A DNA stretch of 64,000 nucleotides, the filler included, from Porpidia crustulata (taxonomy: Eukaryota): NCBI GenBank assembly GCA_964255105.1. It is 4 parts of 4 records of this genome, joined end to end, with 100 filler letters (N's around TTAATTAATTAA, not from the genome) between each part and the next. Parts side by side here need not be neighbours in the genome. Positions count along the whole stretch, not along the records: positions 1 to 16,638 come from CAXUWE010000250.1; 3 more parts are not named here. One strand, written 5' to 3'. The notes below the pieces were generated by a model. That model was not told where the DNA came from and made no database searches. It worked only from the letters and a program-made list of their open reading frames with translations. Of this stretch, positions 339 to 41,349 are shown piece by piece. Position 1 is the first letter of the stretch, and each line of letters starts with the position of its first letter. Both the position numbers and the translations under genes were made by a program.

Positions 339-2219
339 CTATTTTCGATACTGATATGAAGAGGTGAAGTCATCCAAATCCACCGGACCGGTCGAACCTG
401 CCAGCGTTAGACTTTGCGTTTTCACATTATACAGAGCACTGCCTTGATTTTATATGAAACTCACCATATGGATATTCTGCTGGTCTGATTTCTTGATGCT
501 CATCTAGATACTTTAAAAGCGGAGTAAAGATCCTCCAGCTGGCTTCTAATTCCTCCTTACGAACAGATTGGGAATAATCGCCTTTTAGAGCATCAAGTAT
601 CAGAGTCTCATACGCTTCTGGCATGTGCGCTTCGAGATCAAGGCCATGGTAAGTGAGATCCAGATCAGTATACACGGTCTTGATGTCGAGCGCAGGGTAT
701 TTGGAATTCATCATTAAATGTACTCCCTCATTTGGCTGTACACGTATGATCAGCTCATTGTGATTTGTTTGGCTGAAAATGGCAGCCGTAGTATCTTTGT
801 ACTGTATTCGAATTTCTGTTTTTGATTCATTCAGCGCTATTGCCTGGTCAGCAGATCTTTATGCACAGACTGATTGGAAAGGGAACACCTTTGGCAGCCT
901 TGAAAATGAACGGCACTCCATCCCATCGTTGGCTATTAACGTAAGCAATGGCAGAGCAAAACGTGGCGCACCGTGATTCTTCAGGTACTGAATCATCGTC
1001 TTTGTATCCGGGTTTCTCTCCATCTGTTGACTTGCCGTATTGACCAAGGATGGTGTTTTTAAATTCGATAGGTGATATCAGTCGGAGCACGCGCACCTTA
1101 AATTTCTTCAGCATTGCAATATTTTTGGCAGGATAGCGAATGTACCTTTTCATGACAGATATCCGCTGCAGCGAATGAAATGGGCCGTTCCATAGTCATC
1201 AAAGCTAAGAGCTGGAGGAGATCTCATGTTCAAGTAAGCCAATTTGACTCGCTAGATGAAATCTGGTGACTGACGATTTTGCATAATATCACGGATAATG
1301 CCAACATCATCGAAATAGCCCCCTCTTCCTTCAGTTCCAGTGTTTTCTGTCATCGTGATCTAGCCTAGTCAGACAAGATTGCAATGCGGACCTATGTTGG
1401 AGAATGCACAGACTTGTACGTTGTCAATGTTATCACAGTTCCAGCCAGCTCCAAACATTGGGTTTCCAAATCTAAGAACTAGAAGGTTCTTTACCATCTC
1501 CTTTCCTAGATAGTGATCAACACGGAACATCTCATCCTCACTCCAATTAGCCTGCATAGCCGTCTGCAATTCTTCGAAGCTTTCAAGGTCTCTCCCGAAC
1601 GGTTTCTCAACCTAAACATACCATATGTAAGCTCACTCACATTTACATGTCTCGAATTATACACTGACTATAATTCGAGAAGTCCCATTACTTGAATAGC
1701 AATTTCTCCTCAATTGCTCGGATACCGCGACGTAAGCCTTGGGTGGGAGTGCCATGTAGAACATACGATCCTGGTCATAAACGCTTCCCAGTTCATTCAT
1801 GAGTTCATGAAGTTTGATAAATGACTGGTCCCCGTCGCTATCGTTGCAGATATAAGTACATCGATTACAGAATCCTTCGAGGCTCTGCTCCATATGCTCC
1901 GATGATGTGGCGATACAGGACCTAACTATTTCAATATGCTGATCATAGCTTATTTGGGCCGGATCGAAGCCAACAATCTTGAAGCTGTCAGGCAATAAGC
2001 CTTGCAAGTGCTATTACACAAGATTAGAGTTGTTGTAAGAGAATACTTGTATTGATACCACTTGCAAGATGGAAAAGGGCAGGATACTGCGGTATTGGTC
2101 AGCCATGCATTCGAGACATTGACATCGCACGAGCGAACAAGTTTCTTCCTTGCTAAATCGCCTGAGGCGCCTAATAGCACGATGACCGTGTTATCCTTGA
2201 TGCGAGTGGTTTCAGCCAT
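339..2219 (-). CDS. zwf1: Glucose-6-phosphate 1-dehydrogenase, divergent, multi-exon
   Basis: Spliced motifs [17 protein letters not shown] (21-nt exon 2086-2066), [87 protein letters not shown] at 2219; last exon [19 protein letters not shown] ends at TAG 341-339. May be a paralog rather than the true ortholog. Confidence 0.92.
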
Positions 2220-2618: not shown

Positions 2619-3679
2619 TCACCACGCACCTATTCGCAAAGTCTCGTGGTTGATGAATTCGTGTATGTAATTGAAGTAATTTGGCTCCGCGACAGTATTG
2701 TTGTGGGATCCATTAGGTATCGCTTTCCAAATCTTTGTGCTGCTACGACAGACCGAATACAGTTGCCGCATATGTGATGGACTATAGCAGCGGATTAGTG
2801 GAATAAGGTTGAGTTCAAGTGACAGTGGTTGGAGGCTTACGGGACTATCTCATCCTTCAGCCCGCTTATAAATAGGATAGGGATATCAGTGATCCGTGGA
2901 ATAGTATCCTCACTTGGCCAGTACTGATGGCAGAGTGGAGCTAAGTACTTGGCAGGCGGAAACGCACTTGAACGTTCGGTCCGTCAGTAGAATCTTGCGG
3001 TGGAAGAAAGCAGTATATACCTCGGAATCAACTTTCGTATCGAAGTAAATGTATTCTCCAGGATCAGACCCACAACGTCTCCGACTTCATGATTGTTCGC
3101 TACAAGTTGAATTGAAACGGCACCACCTAGGCTCTGACCGAAGACAATAATCTTTCCGCCGCGGGTTTCTTTGTCCTGGCGTATGTAGTCAAGGCCTGTT
3201 TGAGCATCAATCATTAGCCCCTCTTCGTTGGGGGTCCCGGTAGATAGTCCATAGCCTCTATACTCCAGCATCAGAACATTGCAGCCAATATGTTCCTGGA
3301 GAACCTTGGCAATTGGAACTCGATGTCCAATGTTCCCAGCATTACCATGAAACATCAGAATGGTGCAACTCTTATTGGTACGCTGCTTTGAGGCACGGAT
3401 GAAGAAAGCACTCAGCGTCTCTCCATCTGGGGTTGGAATTCTGAGGTCCTCGTAATCTGCAATTCCAAATTGATTGGGCCGGGATACGCCTTCTTCGTTC
3501 CTCGATCCTATTGGTATATTACGCGGGTATATGAGCTCACTACCGCAACGATTAACACCATCATTATAATTGACTACGTAGACCTACTTCTGCTTGAAGT
3601 ACAAAATTCCGCTGGCGAGTGCGGCTATAGCGGACGATGCCAATACGGGGAGCCGCAAGTAGGAGAATATAGTAGCCAT
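2619..3679 (-). CDS. bem46: BEM46/ABHD13-family alpha/beta hydrolase, multi-exon
   Basis: N-terminal hydrophobic anchor (MATIFSYLRLPVLASSAIAALASGILYFKQ), FHGNAGNIGHR, LEYRGYGLSTGTP, nucleophile motif GQSLGG, ILENTFTSI, GLKDEIVP, C-terminal GSHNNT; stop TGA 2621-2619. Confidence 0.88.
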
Positions 3680-5087: not shown

Positions 5088-6293
5088 TCCACCCAGAAAG
5101 TGCAATTATTGAAATGTTTTCTTACCACAAACAAAAACATCATTCCACCGGGAACTTTTGTACCCTTCGGCTCTCAAACTATCAGAAGGTACGACTACAA
5201 GATTGAGGCATAAGACTAGGACGACGACAATCTGCAAACCTTGACAAGGGTGCCTGAGAATTCTCACCAGGAAAAAAAGGCAAAGAAGCCGCGTCAATGG
5301 ACAAGACGTTCCGAGGACAGTTTCTTTCAATCCATAATCCCTGCTTTCGATCACCACAGTGCTCACTCAAAGATTCCCAAGTCTCGGGGGACTACTGGAA
5401 ACGCCAAAGACTATGGAACAGATCAGGGATCTCAAGGAAGTAGCAAATCTATGGACGAGGGTCCAAAGGCTCAGCAGCCACAAGGAAAAGGCAAACAAGC
5501 AGACGATGGTGGAAAGCCTCGTAACTCTGGAAAGAGCAGTACATACGCAGATCAGCATCGAGACTTTGTAATGCCGGGCTCAAAGTCGCAATCAACAAAG
5601 AAAGAAAAGAGCAGTAAGCAATCACCAGGCCTAGATAAGGTAGACTCAAGAGCTTTGGAGGAAGGTGAAGACATGCTAAATGATTGCCAGATAATAAAGG
5701 ATTCCGAAAATTTACCCGCCAATGGCAAAGGAAAGGGCAAAGGAAGGTCGAAGGAGGCTCATGCCGTCAAGCACCAAGAGGAGGATGAGGAACTTGACCC
5801 TTGCACCCAAGACGACCTCGCTGAAATACAGGATAAGGAACCTTCGAGACGCGGAGATTCTAGGAATTTGACGATCAATCATGACCGCATTTCCAATGAA
5901 GGTTCTGGCAGCGACGAGGCTACTCGAGAGGGATCTCCCGGAGGTAACATTGCTGGAGAGGACTTGCGTGAGGACAACAGCAGTGGTGAGCGGTCTGGCA
6001 TGGGGAAATCTGAAAGGGGCTCACCTGACAGGAAAGTACCCAAGGGACTTAAATCAAAGAAGCACGGCTCAAAGCCACAGAAACCCAGTGAGGCACAGGG
6101 TATTCAGGAGCCTTCCATCGAAATGAACGTGCAGGAGATGGCAGAACGATACAATGTTTCTACTGGAGAGCGGGTTCAGAACGTGGACCTGCAGACTGCT
6201 GTGAAAGACTATGGCGATCTTCTTCCTCAGCAGGCCGCGAAGCCCCCAAAAGCCTCGAAGCGACCAAAGAAAGTAAAGTTGGAGGAGGAATGA
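5088..6293 (+). pseudogene. Orphan low-complexity charged (K/E/D/S/G-rich) protein; in-frame stops near 5' end; pseudogene or truncated gene
   Basis: 350-aa ORF 5241-6293 with no recognisable domain. The same frame continues upstream to about 5088 (after a T-rich tract ending in AG at 5085) but contains TAA 5211 and TAG 5217 (YKIEA*D*DDDNL). Confidence 0.5.
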
Positions 6294-8630: not shown

Positions 8631-9390
8631 TGCATTAGATATCTTGATGGTGCCAACCTTTTCAAACCGATTGTGAGTAGTGGTATCATCTGCCACTATT
8701 TCACGGCGCTGATGCTGTCGAACTGAAGTGAAGGCTTTCCAAGCACCCAAGTACCCCGCCGGGTTCTTGCAGTGACATTTACGATACACGAGCGATGGAT
8801 ACATGTGTGACTTTACCAACATCTTGCTGCCCAGTGCACCGAGCCGTGTATAGACTTTAGCCGGGAAATCGCTGAGGAATCACGTCGATAGTTGCCCCTA
8901 TCTCTCGACGCCTTAGCCCAGGCAATGTGAATCCGAATTAGACTAGTTCGATGCCAAACGCCTCCGTGAAGGATACTTGATGGAATATCCAGTATTTGGG
9001 CGTTCCCTGCTGCCGCCGATGCTCTGCAGCACTACCCTTCACGCCAACAAGGTATTCATCATCAACCTAATACGTTCCTTCCCCTCCCCTCCCATTGGCG
9101 GGGCAAGTGTCTCTGCGTTCACTTTGAAATTAGCGTGAGATTCATTGGACTTGGTATGTGATTGAGCTTAGGCAGTCGATTTGTATATACTGACTGTGGA
9201 TTGAATAATTCCAAGACATTATTCTTACCATCTTTCCAAAGTATCAAACCACACCCATCTTCATCGACACTTGATGAAACCCGCCGTTCGTCCTCACGAG
9301 AAAGGCCGACTGCAGTCGATACTGGATCTTTGCATCCAATAGGTGCTGCGTCTCGCCAAAAAATACCAGTGAAATCAATCCAGCAAACAG

Positions 9391-10422
9391 ATGGACTTCC
9401 CCGGAGAAAAACGTCAATATTCTAGAGGCTCTGGCCCAATACGCCCGTTGGTATACATTCCAGACTGGGAATTACATCGACCCTCGGGTACGGATGAACA
9501 AGAGTTTGAAGACCCAAGCACCGACGCTGGCAATCTTACGAGCGGCCATGAAGACGTTCTGTCAGATGACAATTATGAATTGATTCATGTGATCCACGGG
9601 AAACGGCCCAAGCATAGTTCTCAGAAACGCCCTGAGAAACATCACCCCAGATCAGATTCTCGGGAATACTTTCGTCGGAGGAGATTTTCTTCTGAGAGCA
9701 TTAGTTCTGAGGTCGAGAAGGTCAGGAATCAGCATCATAGACGAGGGAATCCTGTGGAACGTCACTCCAGATCAGATCCTCGGGAATACTTTCGCCGAAG
9801 ATTTTCTTCTGAGAGCATTAGTTCTGAGATCGAAAAGGTCAGGAATCAGCATCATAGACGAAGGAGTCCTGTGGAACGGTATGACAACAGGAGATCTGAT
9901 CACGACTATTCTGACAGGGAGCGGTCCTCCCACGAGGATTATGGTCACCAGAGTTCTGGTGAGTTGAGCTACGGTGAACAGAGCTACGATGACGAGTTGG
10001 ATCGGGAAAAAAGCCGCCTTGACGAAGATAAAAGACGGTTCGAAAAGCATCAACAGTCTATTACAAAGAAACGCCGTGCAAAAAGGTTTTATCAAGATCA
10101 GTCTAGTCCAGAAAGGTCTTTCTCAGATAAACATGCTCCGCAAGAGTATTTTTCAGACGCCGAGGAAAGTCGTTCCGATAGATACCATCGGGCGGCGCGT
10201 TATCCAGAGAGGCATTCTCCAGTGAGGTACTATACACGGCAGAATTCCCCGGATAGGTATCGTTCAACCAGGGACCACCCGGGTAGATATTCTTCGCACA
10301 GACATCCTCGAACGAGGTCTCCCATTAGGGGTCATCGAGAAGCAAAGTGCACGATGCCGGAGTACTCCGATGAGGAATTCACGCACAAGCGTAATCCAAC
10401 TTACTCTTTCACTCGTAGCTAA
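9391..10422 (+). CDS. Orphan Arg/Ser/His/Asp-rich disordered protein, paralog of the 7157 gene; stop at 10420 may be premature
   Basis: 343-aa ATG-initiated ORF with an internal 40-aa duplication. Similarity to the copy-1 reading frame continues past the TAA (AKRGRASRA vs AERERGSRE). Confidence 0.6.
   Translation: MDFPGEKRQYSRGSGPIRPLVYIPDWELHRPSGTDEQEFEDPSTDAGNLTSGHEDVLSDDNYELIHVIHGKRPKHSSQKRPEKHHPRSDSREYFRRRRFSSESISSEVEKVRNQHHRRGNPVERHSRSDPREYFRRRFSSESISSEIEKVRNQHHRRRSPVERYDNRRSDHDYSDRERSSHEDYGHQSSGELSYGEQSYDDELDREKSRLDEDKRRFEKHQQSITKKRRAKRFYQDQSSPERSFSDKHAPQEYFSDAEESRSDRYHRAARYPERHSPVRYYTRQNSPDRYRSTRDHPGRYSSHRHPRTRSPIRGHREAKCTMPEYSDEEFTHKRNPTYSFTRS
9643..9879 (+). repeat. Near-identical internal direct repeat, 2 x ~120 bp (40/39 codons)
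   Basis: HPRSDSREYFRRRRFSSESISSEVEKVRNQHHRRGNPVER followed by HSRSDPREYFRRRFSSESISSEIEKVRNQHHRRRSPVER. Confidence 0.95.
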
Positions 10423-17553: not shown

Positions 17554-19379
17554 TCACTCCGAAATCGGAGACGGGCACTTCTTCAATTGCTGGGTGCCAT
17601 CGGCACGTTTGTACGACAGTAGCTTTTTAAAATCCTGGTCGTAGTCATCCTCTAGAGCTTCGTCGGTCTCAACCTGAACAACATCTTGCCCTTGGTTAAC
17701 GGGTCGCATGCCACCATGCATGGGTTGGTTCAAGTGAGTCGAGTCAAAGACGGAGCCAAAAGCACGTTTGCCGAGATGGGATGAGCCGGCAGATTGTACT
17801 GTAGCAGGGTACGGTGTGGTGAACATCGGCGCGCTATCATATATTGGTGTTGAGGGGGCAATATTTGGCGGCGGTACTGCAGAAGCGGGCAGGGCTGGTT
17901 CGTACTTACTTGCTATCGGTGGCTGCAACGTCTTCAATGGTGGTAAGACTTGTACGTTGGTAGGAGTTGTGGCTCGCGGCACAGGTGCCGGTACAGGCTG
18001 TGGATACCATTGTTGCTGTGCCGAAAGTGGACGATTTTCCGGGGGAGGGTAAGTGTTTACTTGCTGGCCTGGGAAGATCGGATTGTTCACAATGCCTGAA
18101 GCACGGCGGTAGTCGTTGAGGGGGCGATATTCCTTGGAATCGGCGTAAGACTGCTGGTACTGTGGCTGTTGAGGGGCCTGGGGTTGTTGGATTCCAAAAT
18201 TGTTTCTTGGAATCGACATTTGCCGATTGTGATTGGTCGGATACTGGAAACCATTGCCAGTAGCTATATAGTTTTGTGTTGATTGTGATGGCGGCGCTGG
18301 AGGTGGCTGGAATGACGGCGCGGCATACTGGTTATTGTTGGAGCCACCAAACGCCAGGTGCGATGTGTAATTGTTGAGCGGCTGGGTAGACTGTACCGGT
18401 GGAGGAGGCTGTTGGAAGTTGGGCTGATGGAAAAACGACATGTCCTGGGCAGACTGTCGACGTTGCTCTGCACCGTACGGTGTTGGGGGATCTATGCTGG
18501 TGTGGCTCGTTGACCTTGGACGATCTGGCATCTGCGGTTGCCCATATGGATCCGGTGTTACATGAGACCGTACATAATGGTTCTCCTCGTCATATTCATC
18601 ATAGCCTTGACCTGCTTTCGTGTCCCGTCTCCTCATACGAACATCTCGCCTGATTCTTACTCGACAGCCTTGCTCGGCAACAACACGGCTGAGCGGGGTG
18701 CTCTCTGCAAGACCAGGGAATTTCTTGGCGCTGAAGACGTGGAAAGGGACCGACTTGACTTCGAGGCGAAAGTTTACATGATCACGCGGTGACATTGGAT
18801 TCGTTGGCGAACTATTCCGGTCCTCACCATTCGGACTAGCGGTTGCAGACTCGTTGTCGGCGTCTTTGCTCTCCTTAAGTTCCTCGAACAAATTGAAGCT
18901 CAGTCTATATTTACCCTCGTGGCGAACAGACAAATCGGGAAAGATGAAATAGCCTGCAGGATCGGGTCTATCCAGGTACGCCATACCAGCAACGGGCGTG
19001 CCGGTCAAGACCGGGAACGGCGTCGGTACCTGTGGAACACGGCCTTGGTTGATAGGACGAGCAGATTCGAGGGTAGTGTAGAGGAAGAAGTTGGCATTGT
19101 AGGAAAAGGTAATGTCGTTCTTCGCTTCTCCTTCGAATATGCGAAGCTGGACGACTGGAGGCGGATCTACAGGGCGACGATCTGCGGACGCTGCGAGACT
19201 GTTAGATGCTATTTCACAAAGGAGAGGGATGGCAACGCACATTTGGCTCCCGAACCACATGCACGGGCTCGTTCTGGCTTTTGAATGACCTCCATTTCGT
19301 ACGTCAACTGCCTTCCCTCCTTCGTCACCCGACTCATTGAGCTCTTCGTCTCATTGCTAACCGGTAGGATGCTTGCCAT
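17554..19379 (-). CDS. veA: Velvet complex regulator VeA
   Basis: ATG 19379 [46 protein letters not shown], intron 19240-19191, [64 protein letters not shown]-rich region, C-terminal YKRADG. Confidence 0.96.
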
Positions 19380-39973: not shown

Positions 39974-41349
39974 ATGGGTGAATCCAATCACTTGGATGCG
40001 AGAGCCACAGCATTGAGTGATGACAGCGAATATGGAGGACCTCCAGTTACTGCTTCGGACTCGGAGCATCTTCTTCATCACGATCTCGAATTACAGGAGA
40101 TGTTGCCAAAAGTGCAACCAGGCTGGAAAGAGCTGTTCCTAAATCGTATATCAACAAGAAGGCGGAAGCGCCAGACACCAAGCTGTGAAGAAAGGCTCTG
40201 CGGACGTTGCGGCGAGGAGAACCTTGTAAGAAAAAGGCCATTACGGAAATGTGTGATTGTTGGACTTTGGATATTTGCGCTCTTGTGAGAACATGCCAAC
40301 TGCTTCAACTATTCCATTCAACTACTAATCGCTAGTGAAGTGGTGCACTACAACTGCTGAACCTATTGATCGGCCTAGCGCCATCGTTCCCGTCCGACGG
40401 CATCCATCGTATCCTTAGACACTGGGGAAAACCGGGTCAGATTGGCGATGGCTTATCTTCTTGGCCAACAGACTTCTCTCGAGGCATCCTTCCAGTATCG
40501 TGTCATTCTCATAACGACTATTGGCGCGAGGTCCCATTATACTCGGCCATTGAGGCAGGATGTATTAGTGTCGAAGCCGATGTTTGGCTCATAGATGAAG
40601 AACTATACGTTGGCCATGATCGTGCAAGCCTCACGAATGAGCGCACTCTCGCTAATCTCTATATAAATCCGCTTCTCGAGATTCTATTAAACCAAAATCC
40701 TATCACTTCCTTCCACCCTGACGGTAACACTAGCCTCCATGGTGTCTTTGACACCACTCCTGAACAGTCTCTTGTGCTTCTGATCGACTTCAAAACGCCC
40801 GGTCATGACCTATGGCCTCATGTGCTTTCTGCTCTTAAGCCTCTCCGCGAACGACAGTACCTGACCCATTATGATAGCTTTCGGATGATCCACGGTCCTA
40901 TCACAGTTGTTGGAACCGGTAACACTCCCTTTGACTCGATTTCTTCTGATTCGTCTAATCCTCATCATGACGTCTTCTTTGACGCCCCGTTGGATCAAAT
41001 GTCAAGAGACAAAGTCTCACTCCAGGCTTCTCCCAATCTTAGCTCCGAAGGCCGAAATAACTCCATGAACCAAGATGTGTACGATCCCTCGAACTCCTTC
41101 TACGCCAGTGCTTCTTTCCGTGATGCAATCGGATATCCATGGCGGGGCCATTTGACGGACCAGCAGCTTACCCTGATCAGGGGACAAATTGCTGATGCCC
41201 ATAAAAGGGGGCTTAAGGCAAGGTATTGGGATCTACCATTTTGGCCAATTGGACTAAGAGACAACATCTGGGACGTCCTGGTGAAAGAAGGTATTGATTT
41301 ATTGAACGTGGATGATTTAGCAGCAGCTACGCAACAAAAATGGACATGA
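39974..41349 (+). CDS. AIM6: Aim6-like PLC-like phosphodiesterase with membrane anchor
   Basis: CHSHNDYWREVPLYSAIEAGCISVEADVWL, LYVGHD, LYINPL, LVLLIDFK, ARYWDLP, LLNVDDL; intron about 40285-40340 within a hydrophobic segment. Confidence 0.82.

Follow-up and report, generated by a model that had tools for sequence, protein, structure and literature searches.

We describe a divergent paralog of glucose-6-phosphate dehydrogenase (G6PD) that is encoded on the minus strand, at positions 2219 to 339, of a 64,000-nucleotide stretch of the Porpidia crustulata assembly GCA_964255105.1 (four joined parts, here called the window). Eukaryotic G6PD is the textbook source of NADPH and is treated as strictly NADP+-dependent. 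Alignments of the paralog and of its relatives from other lichen fungi suggest that both sites at which the canonical enzyme contacts NADP+ have changed in the same direction, while the catalytic and substrate-binding residues are present. From these sequences we consider it rather probable that the gene encodes an active G6PD isozyme that prefers NAD+ or uses both cofactors and has lost the structural NADP+ site, and that it represents a Pezizomycotina duplicate kept in at least two lichen lineages. Such an enzyme would probably yield NADH rather than NADPH.

Residues at the two NADP+ sites

A preliminary description of the window had read KIVGFDPAQ at about 1954-1980, where eukaryotic G6PDs carry GYAR[ST], and had concluded that the arginine of the catalytic coenzyme site (human R72) was lost. 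Both points hold. The motif lies at 1980-1954 on the minus strand, at the end of Rossmann strand beta-B and in the beta-B/alpha-B loop. Exon 3 was aligned to human G6PD chains by phmmer; the alignment is gap-free from GLLP past KIVGFDPAQ and places F on Y70, D on A71, P on R72, A on S73 and Q on R74, leaving no Arg at or beside position 72 in the window protein. Another Arg aligned to R72 had been named as evidence that would speak against a change of cofactor; none was found there, either in the window protein or in the clade that it forms with its relatives.

The extent of this change was tabulated against a canonical set of 194 rows, comprising every protein from the exon 8 search and the cluster look-ups other than 16 paralog-type rows; many rows are fragments and the denominators vary by position. 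Human positions 70-72 read Y-A-R in 113/113 canonical fungal sequences and [FL]-D-[PQL] in 13/13 clade sequences, that is, Asp at 71 and P, Q or L at 72 in every covering clade row. Asp71 is encoded by GAT in the window and by GAC in three orthologous metagenome loci (L001-L003), the residue being unchanged. There is no conserved basic residue near position 72 in the clade, with Q, E, K, R or H found at position 74, and S40 is kept. In the AlphaFold model of the clade member P0004, which was used solely for assignment of the N-terminal strand, strand 39-44 ends in Asp44 (local pLDDT 76-80, and 60-86 over the N-terminal domain). The Arg of the beta2-alpha2 region (R50 in E. coli, R46 in L. mesenteroides, R72 in human and T. 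cruzi) is the main ligand of the 2'-phosphate (PMC4807051, PMC8546961, PMC11448927), human Arg72 being close to that group (PMC11448927), and its absence is the criterion by which Volke et al. (2021) set apart NAD+-preferring or dual G6PD isozymes (PMC8546961).

The second group of changes concerns the structural NADP+ site. In the human enzyme the adenine of this NADP+ lies between Tyr503 and Arg487 and the nicotinamide between Trp509 and Tyr401, with a further contact from Lys403 (PMC11448927). Positions outside exon 3 were fixed by a full-length alignment of P0004 to human numbering, and this confirmed that changes at K238, Y401, K403 and R487 and the loss of the W509 tail had been mapped correctly in the preliminary description. 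K238 is reportedly part of the same site. The window protein has Thr for K238, His for Y401, Met for K403 and Thr for R487; the Teloschistaceae proteins read R at 401 and K at 403, Met at 403 being a feature of the window's subgroup, and P0004 has Glu for R487. Lys is present at position 238 in 160/163 canonical sequences, compared with T or I in 18/18 of the clade, and Tyr401 in 181/181, compared with H or R in 18/18. Arg487 is found in 118/137 canonical rows, the remainder lying mostly in visibly mispredicted tails, and is replaced by T, D, E, V or A in 17/17 clade rows. The neighboring F237 is Met in 18/19 clade rows and Leu in one.

The C-terminus is also shortened. The window protein continues for only 14 residues after GP, ending near position 503 with no Trp, and clade tails in general stop 14-22 residues past GP, likewise with no Trp. 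Canonical fungi keep Y401, K403, R487, Y503 and W509-type residues; their tails have a median length of 32 residues after GP and contain aromatic-x-W in 106/109 rows with YGSRGP. The paralog differs from the NADP+-specific eukaryotic type of G6PD both at R72 and at the structural NADP+ site, and resembles the NAD+-preferring or dual type in its missing 2'-phosphate Arg and in the acidic residue that ends Rossmann strand beta-2. Peroxisomal targeting was considered as well and rejected, as the clade C-termini (YRK, YKH, YQK, YQR and YNH) do not appear to match the PTS1 pattern.

Catalytic and substrate-binding residues

The window protein contains the His263/Asp200 pair together with the glucose 6-phosphate (G6P) ligands H201, K205, E239, D258, K360 and Q395, as the preliminary description had stated. 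Within the clade, K171, D200, H201, K205 and E239 are kept in 18/18 covering rows and D258, R370, Q395 and D421 in every covering row; the alignment of P0004 to human numbering shows E239, K360, K366, R370, R393, Q395 and D421 in place. K360 is kept in 17/18 clade rows, the exception being a Teloschistaceae model with Leu; at position 366 the clade has either K or R. His263 is kept except in five Teloschistaceae models that read Arg, and at this point P0007, P0008, P0009 and P0012 visibly enter unspliced sequence.

The same residues bear on whether the paralog has been neofunctionalized beyond its cofactor, to act on another sugar phosphate, with another redox partner, or mainly in a non-catalytic capacity, for example as a regulator or scaffold. 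We regard this as improbable. P240 and F241, which adjoin E239, vary within the clade, and other substrates or cofactors have been raised by the authors for the P. putida isozyme G6PDH-C (PMC8546961). Against such a change of function, the known G6P-binding and catalytic residues are kept in the covering clade rows, apart from the H263 and K360 exceptions in some models. The Ser found in the clade at R365 is no special loss, because canonical fungi already have Gln at this position.

Gene structure and reading frame

The gene model was obtained by three-frame translation with exons joined at splice sites. It comprises nine exons between 2219 and 339 on the minus strand, with a coding sequence of 1443 nt that runs from ATG (2219-2217) to TAG (341-339) and encodes 480 amino acids without an internal stop, in agreement with the intact reading frame reported earlier. 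The eight introns measure 49-67 nt each. Pfam domains G6PD_N (60.7 and 63.9 bits, cut-off 22.1) and G6PD_C (60.9 and 108.6 bits, cut-off 27) match the window exons, and P0004 contains both domains at full length. The gene carries GxxGDLx, EKPxG and a nonapeptide of the RIDHYLGKE type, the defining G6PD motifs as given in PMC8546961 and PMC11448927, and among solved G6PD structures exon 8 matches that of K. lactis (7e6h, E=5e-33).

Exon 1 (2139-2219) includes the dinucleotide fingerprint GASGDLA at 2171-2151 and ends at a GTTCGC donor, which corresponds to GTACGC in L001 and GTACAT in L002. Exon 2 (2066-2086), a micro-exon of 21 nt, encodes YPALFHL, and the intron after it is of GC-AG type (donor GCAAGT); together they occupy 2011-2086, with counterparts at 1748-1823 in L001 and 1747-1822 in L002, diverged orthologs in which the donor is kept as GCAAG. 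The micro-exon and GC-donor intron amend the earlier by-eye reading. A second model of the exon 2/3 junction, with a GT donor (GTATCA) and the reading ...HLASGLLP, was rejected because the GC-donor model restores the canonical spacing from GASGDLA to beta-B, reads QGLLP in agreement with human DGLLP, and uses the conserved GCAAG donor. Five Teloschistaceae models (P0001, P0002, P0003, P0005 and P0125) lack exactly the seven residues of the micro-exon, which was therefore probably missed in these public gene models; P0004 has them.

Exon 3 (1669-2010; G6PD_N, E=3.8e-16) continues helix alpha-A to its end and encodes strand beta-B together with the variable region of the coenzyme domain. EKPFG (1608-1594) and RVDHYLGKE (1524-1498) are intact in exon 4 (1414-1611), and exon 5 (1275-1359) begins with ITMTENTG (1359-1336) where the canonical sequence is [ST]FKEPFG. 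Exon 6 (1146-1222) completes the His263 codon, which is split as C and AT over intron 5, and exon 7 (889-1096), VRVLRL...FIFKAAK, includes K360 and matches G6PD_C. In exon 8 (465-836) K366, R370, R393 and Q395 are kept, and Y401 and K403 are replaced by His and Met within a 15-residue motif at 750-706. The sequence YGSTGP (468-384) is interrupted by the last intron, so that exon 9 (339-397) starts with (G)STGP, carrying the replacement of R487 by Thr, and continues into the 14-residue tail, with SSYQYRK and the stop codon at 362-339 and the Y503 to W509 segment missing.

When the window exons were projected on five ortholog loci (L001, L002, L003, L006 and L007), each showed the nine-exon structure of the window, with standard splice sites and an uninterrupted open reading frame (ORF). 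Insertions occur at intron positions in P0007, P0008, P0010, P0011, P0012 and P0014, for example after QN and before ALNESK or GS.GP; such insertions represent in-frame read-through of introns, not real sequence. P0043, a 432-amino-acid uninterrupted clade protein from a 2-kb contig, spans six intron positions without an insertion and to us looks like the product of a spliced transcript. One sequencing run (X1) contained an identical 4937-nt contig with introns in place, which is DNA-like, may be the source of the stretch, and is uninformative on expression or splicing.

These features also address the idea that the gene is a decaying duplicate, a pseudogene in the making, which we consider very improbable. 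The exon 1 donor (GTTCGC) is weak and the intron 2 donor is not GT. The latter, however, has the standard GCAAG form and is conserved, and the ORF is intact across eight introns in the window as well as in the five ortholog loci. The apparently spliced P0043 points the same way, as does conservation of the signature residues between lineages with only ~62% protein identity.

Relatives, phylogeny and selection

A search with exon 3 recovered 13 proteins, all from lichen metagenome-assembled genomes (MAGs) of Teloschistaceae, at 44-52% identity and named only 'hypothetical protein' in the source. Exon 8 added three more amid hundreds of canonical G6PDs: P0014 (80% identity), P0043, and P0125 from Teloschistaceae. 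In metagenome contigs 41 loci were recovered, 34 canonical and seven of the paralog type (L001-L007, 83-84% identical in exon 8). A profile of the clade did not separate it in a library of representatives at 50% identity (best match 464 bits), its members evidently being clustered there with canonical G6PDs.

Phylogenetic analysis of 42 rows, six of them outgroup rows, was conducted in IQ-TREE (LG+C20+F+G4 PMSF); the Teloschistaceae fragments P0006-P0010, P0012 and P0013, the locus-derived proteins and most canonical rows were left out. All 10 paralog-type rows formed one branch with support of 100/100 and a stem of ~1.0 change per site, so the clade with a GFDP-like motif, which the preliminary description had suggested looking for, does exist and is monophyletic. 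The branch nests inside canonical Pezizomycotina, with its sister weakly placed (64/67 with Umbilicaria). The window protein is ~60% identical to canonical G6PDs and ~62% to the Teloschistaceae paralogs; canonical copies share 81-88% across fungal classes.

Canonical G6PDs of the GYAR type, 509-511 amino acids long, were found under the same locus-tag prefixes as the paralogs, namely Q9169 (Polycauliona sp. 2), Q9188 (Gyalolechia gomerana) and Q9211 (Gyalolechia sp. 1), and the two types co-occur in 3/3 MAGs for which both types of row were seen. Among the matches listed, no paralog-type rows came from other named Lecanoromycetes (Xylographa, Physcia, Umbilicaria, Stereocaulon, Puttea, Thelotrema and Stictis), which is weak evidence on distribution. 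Members of the clade come from at least two lichen-forming lineages of Lecanoromycetes that are distant from each other.

The paralog is under purifying selection, with omega values (dN/dS, the ratio of nonsynonymous to synonymous substitution rates) of 0.07-0.13, a check that the preliminary description had called for. Comparison of L001 with L002 gave dN 0.12, dS 1.1-1.6 and omega 0.07-0.11. Between the window and L001, L002 or L003, maximum-likelihood omega was ~0.10, with dS saturated and NG86 failing; when the two domains were considered, both gave 0.08-0.13. Codon positions 1 and 2 are 84% identical between the window and L002, compared with 48% at position 3, a measure that is independent of saturation. 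Omega of ~0.1 and the far greater divergence of third codon positions than of first and second positions are further arguments against a pseudogene, and such an omega over both domains suits an enzyme better than a scaffold. The long stem of ~1.0 change per site is consistent with a wider change of function, as is the ~5-fold higher evolutionary rate of the paralog relative to canonical copies from the same genera (for example, ~0.17 vs. ~0.03 on the Polycauliona-Flavoplaca path).

Proposed cofactor use

With an unchanged substrate site and catalytic machinery, the paralog would still oxidize G6P to 6-phosphogluconolactone. The catalytic coenzyme site, in contrast to that of the canonical enzyme, no longer has the 2'-phosphate Arg (human R72, E. 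coli R50, L. mesenteroides R46), and the Asp that ends beta-B takes the position of the carboxylate of NAD+ enzymes, where it may hydrogen-bond to the adenosine ribose hydroxyls and repel a 2'-phosphate. A carboxylate here has been likened by the authors of PMC4807051 to the ribose-binding carboxylate of NAD+-dependent dehydrogenases. According to the same study, the energy of 2'-phosphate binding in the E. coli enzyme comes entirely from R50 and K18, and discrimination between the cofactors is lost when both are mutated. Since the Arg is lost and an Asp gained, we propose that affinity for NADP+ is strongly reduced and that the enzyme is NAD+-preferring or dual. Because Y401, R487, Y503, W509 and K238 are replaced or deleted, its stability and assembly would likewise no longer be NADP+-dependent. 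The net effect would be an NADH-feeding branch of G6P oxidation, uncoupled from the NADP+/NADPH pool and running beside the canonical NADPH-producing enzyme. The changed cofactor use put forward in the preliminary description is thus partly supported: the residue changes are as described, and from them we infer the shift in cofactor.

Several points weigh against this proposal. The E. coli R50A variant still shows a 50-fold preference for NADP+ (PMC4807051), so loss of the Arg alone does not invert specificity. Of the natural G6PDs measured, the most NAD+-leaning have a preference of only ~3-5-fold, with quotients of 0.2-0.3, and are classed as dual (PMC4807051); as these preferences are modest, to speak of 'NADH rather than NADPH' may go too far. 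The clade retains K47 and other basic residues downstream of GASGDLA, which could still contribute to 2'-phosphate binding. The proposed loss of structural NADP+ is read from residues common to human and canonical fungal enzymes. The AlphaFold model of P0004 is poor (mean pLDDT 42, and <50 from residue 143 on), which makes its beta+alpha domain unreliable. Finally, the ~5-fold faster evolution implies that some relaxation of constraint is real.

Some of these points would equally suit an isozyme that is still NADP+-linked and produces NADPH in vivo, with lower NADP+ affinity, no structural or allosteric site and different regulation, for instance a weaker response to the NADP+/NADPH ratio or an altered oligomeric state. 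We regard this as rather unlikely. In addition to the behavior of R50A and the retention of S40 and K47, it agrees with the statement of Ragunathan and Levy, as cited in PMC4807051, that no NAD+-specific G6PDH had been characterized by 1994, and with trypanosomatid G6PDs, which function although no structural NADP+ is reported for them (PMC11448927). The residual NADP+ preference of R50A, however, is explained by the presence of K18; the K18 position is Ser here and in all eukaryotic G6PDs, and therefore Arg72 would be their main 2'-phosphate ligand. The Asp gained at the last residue of beta-B, conserved in all 13 covering rows, would repel a 2'-phosphate, and the loop has no conserved compensating basic residue. 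For these reasons we favor the NAD+-preferring or dual isozyme. Arg-less G6PDHs have been classed as NAD+-specific or loosened in specificity and include the most NAD+-leaning forms known, and gene duplication with relaxed specificity has been proposed as a means of balancing NADH and NADPH (PMC8546961).

A role of the paralog in handling photobiont carbon is plausible by analogy. Xanthoria mycobionts turn ribitol into mannitol (PMC10952756), and in P. putida growing on fructose or ribose nearly all flux passes through G6PDH (PMC8546961). A link to polyol metabolism, which had been raised earlier, is speculation. We also offer, tentatively and as a doubtful extension, the broader idea that lichen fungi keep a dedicated NAD+-linked G6PD, giving an NADH-yielding oxidative pentose-phosphate route that would be an adaptation to photobiont carbon. 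If so, this lineage of G6PD would be the first in eukaryotes to prefer NAD+. With the 2'-phosphate ligand and the structural NADP+ site both gone, the route would be catabolic and insulated from the NADP+/NADPH pool, and photobiont pentitols and hexoses would be recycled via the pentose-phosphate pathway into mannitol and arabitol. The patchy occurrence of the clade, in Teloschistaceae and in one distant lecanoromycete lineage, would then reflect either an old duplication with repeated loss or a transfer between lichen fungi.

Genomic neighborhood and other observations

An alpha/beta-hydrolase gene (Hydrolase_4 / Abhydrolase_1; 2837-3583, minus strand) lies directly upstream of the G6PD paralog, and the same adjacency is present in L006 (202-768), where it is the only syntenic neighbor. 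The pairing may either be conserved or result from mere close relatedness, and is given as context only. Other genes in the window are likewise of housekeeping type (cyclin, velvet, TRAPPC10, desaturase, helicase, TFIIIC, PhoD, kinase and kinesin). No sign of a metabolic or biosynthetic cluster was seen among the visible neighbors, the window stopping 338 nt past the stop codon, and the 3 kb downstream of the L006 ortholog had no Pfam match. Three open frames, at 5220-6293, 9373-10422 and 40339-41349 on the plus strand (357, 349 and 336 amino acids), had no Pfam match at E<=1e-4.

The velvet-domain regulator gene (17554-19350, minus strand), whose own protein is P0360, has its best named matches in the lichen-forming Lecanoromycetes Icmadophila (60%), Pseudocyphellaria (57%), Xylographa (54-55%) and Teloschistaceae (50-53%), and other relatives at 74-81%. 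By these matches the window belongs to a lecanoromycete outside Teloschistaceae. Among the database proteins recovered, P0288 (492 amino acids) belongs to a canonical G6PD cluster at 90% identity and is named 'Inorganic pyrophosphatase [Watsoniomyces obsoletus]' in the source, probably a misannotation. P0113 (979 amino acids) and P0126 (1099 amino acids, with a transporter domain, PF13347) are over-long canonical G6PDs that look like merged gene models of Penicillium type.

Comparison with known G6PDs

Compared with the canonical cytosolic G6PD of fungi (Zwf1/GsdA, EC 1.1.1.49), the paralog has the same two Pfam domains, GASGDLA, EKPFG, R[IV]DHYLGKE and catalytic residues, at ~60% identity. 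It differs in reading F-D-[PQL] for Y-A-R, MTExxG for FKEPFG, H/R for Y401 and T/E/D/V/A for R487, in an N-terminus that is shorter by 12-13 residues, and in its short tail without Trp. The dual-specificity G6PD of Leuconostoc mesenteroides (PDB 1dpg and related entries; P0004 match, E=9e-79) is similar in fold and catalytic residues and also has no structural NADP+ tail. The L. mesenteroides enzyme, however, relies on a retained Arg46 in its use of NADP+ (PMC11448927, PMC8546961), an Arg that the lichen paralog lacks.

Eukaryote-type G6PDs without the Arg also occur outside the clade, in the basidiomycete Collybiopsis luxurians (P0155, GAGPD), the dinoflagellate Gymnodinium smaydae (P0181, GVDNP) and Toxoplasma/Hammondia (P0214, GMSNQ), so the lichen clade is not the only eukaryotic case in which the Arg has been lost. 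Unlike the lichen clade, these proteins keep Y401-type and mostly R487-type residues; P0181 shares Asp71. P0197, P0229 and P0266 are further family members without the 2'-phosphate Arg, and some of these six proteins have Asp at the preceding position. We found no cofactor data for these proteins, Toxoplasma G6PD2 included, and full-text literature searches yielded no publication dealing with a G6PD paralog of lichens or fungi or with an NAD+-linked fungal G6PD. G6PD is not mentioned in the main text of a Teloschistales metagenome paper (PMC9907504), and PMC7848525 contains none of the residue labels sought. As far as we found, no description exists of G6PDs in lichen fungi that combine a conserved Asp71 with a dismantled structural site, are under purifying selection and are accompanied by a canonical copy. 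A selectively kept eukaryotic paralog that lacks both NADP+ determinants and carries the NAD+ signature would offer an assayable candidate for redox balance in lichen fungi while they process symbiont-derived carbon, a natural template for engineering NAD+-dependent G6PD, and a natural test of whether structural NADP+ is dispensable in a eukaryotic G6PD.

The nearest parallels are the bacterial Arg-less isozymes that lean toward NAD+ or are dual, compared here by description only: P. putida G6PDH-B, with His at the Arg position, the proteobacterial 'group III', and the enzymes of Komagataeibacter/Gluconacetobacter hansenii and P. fluorescens. Like the lichen paralog, they are second copies beside an Arg-bearing isozyme and have lost the Arg (PMC4807051, PMC8546961), and in 'group III' an Asp is frequent just before the lost Arg, the same D-x pattern as in the lichen clade (PMC4807051, PMC8546961). 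They differ in being of independent origin, whereas the lichen clade nests in fungal G6PDs, and in never having had the eukaryotic C-terminal structural-NADP+ tail. In bacteria, duplication of the enzyme with relaxed specificity has been proposed to balance NADH and NADPH (PMC8546961), and the lichen paralog would be a natural counterpart of this strategy in a eukaryote.

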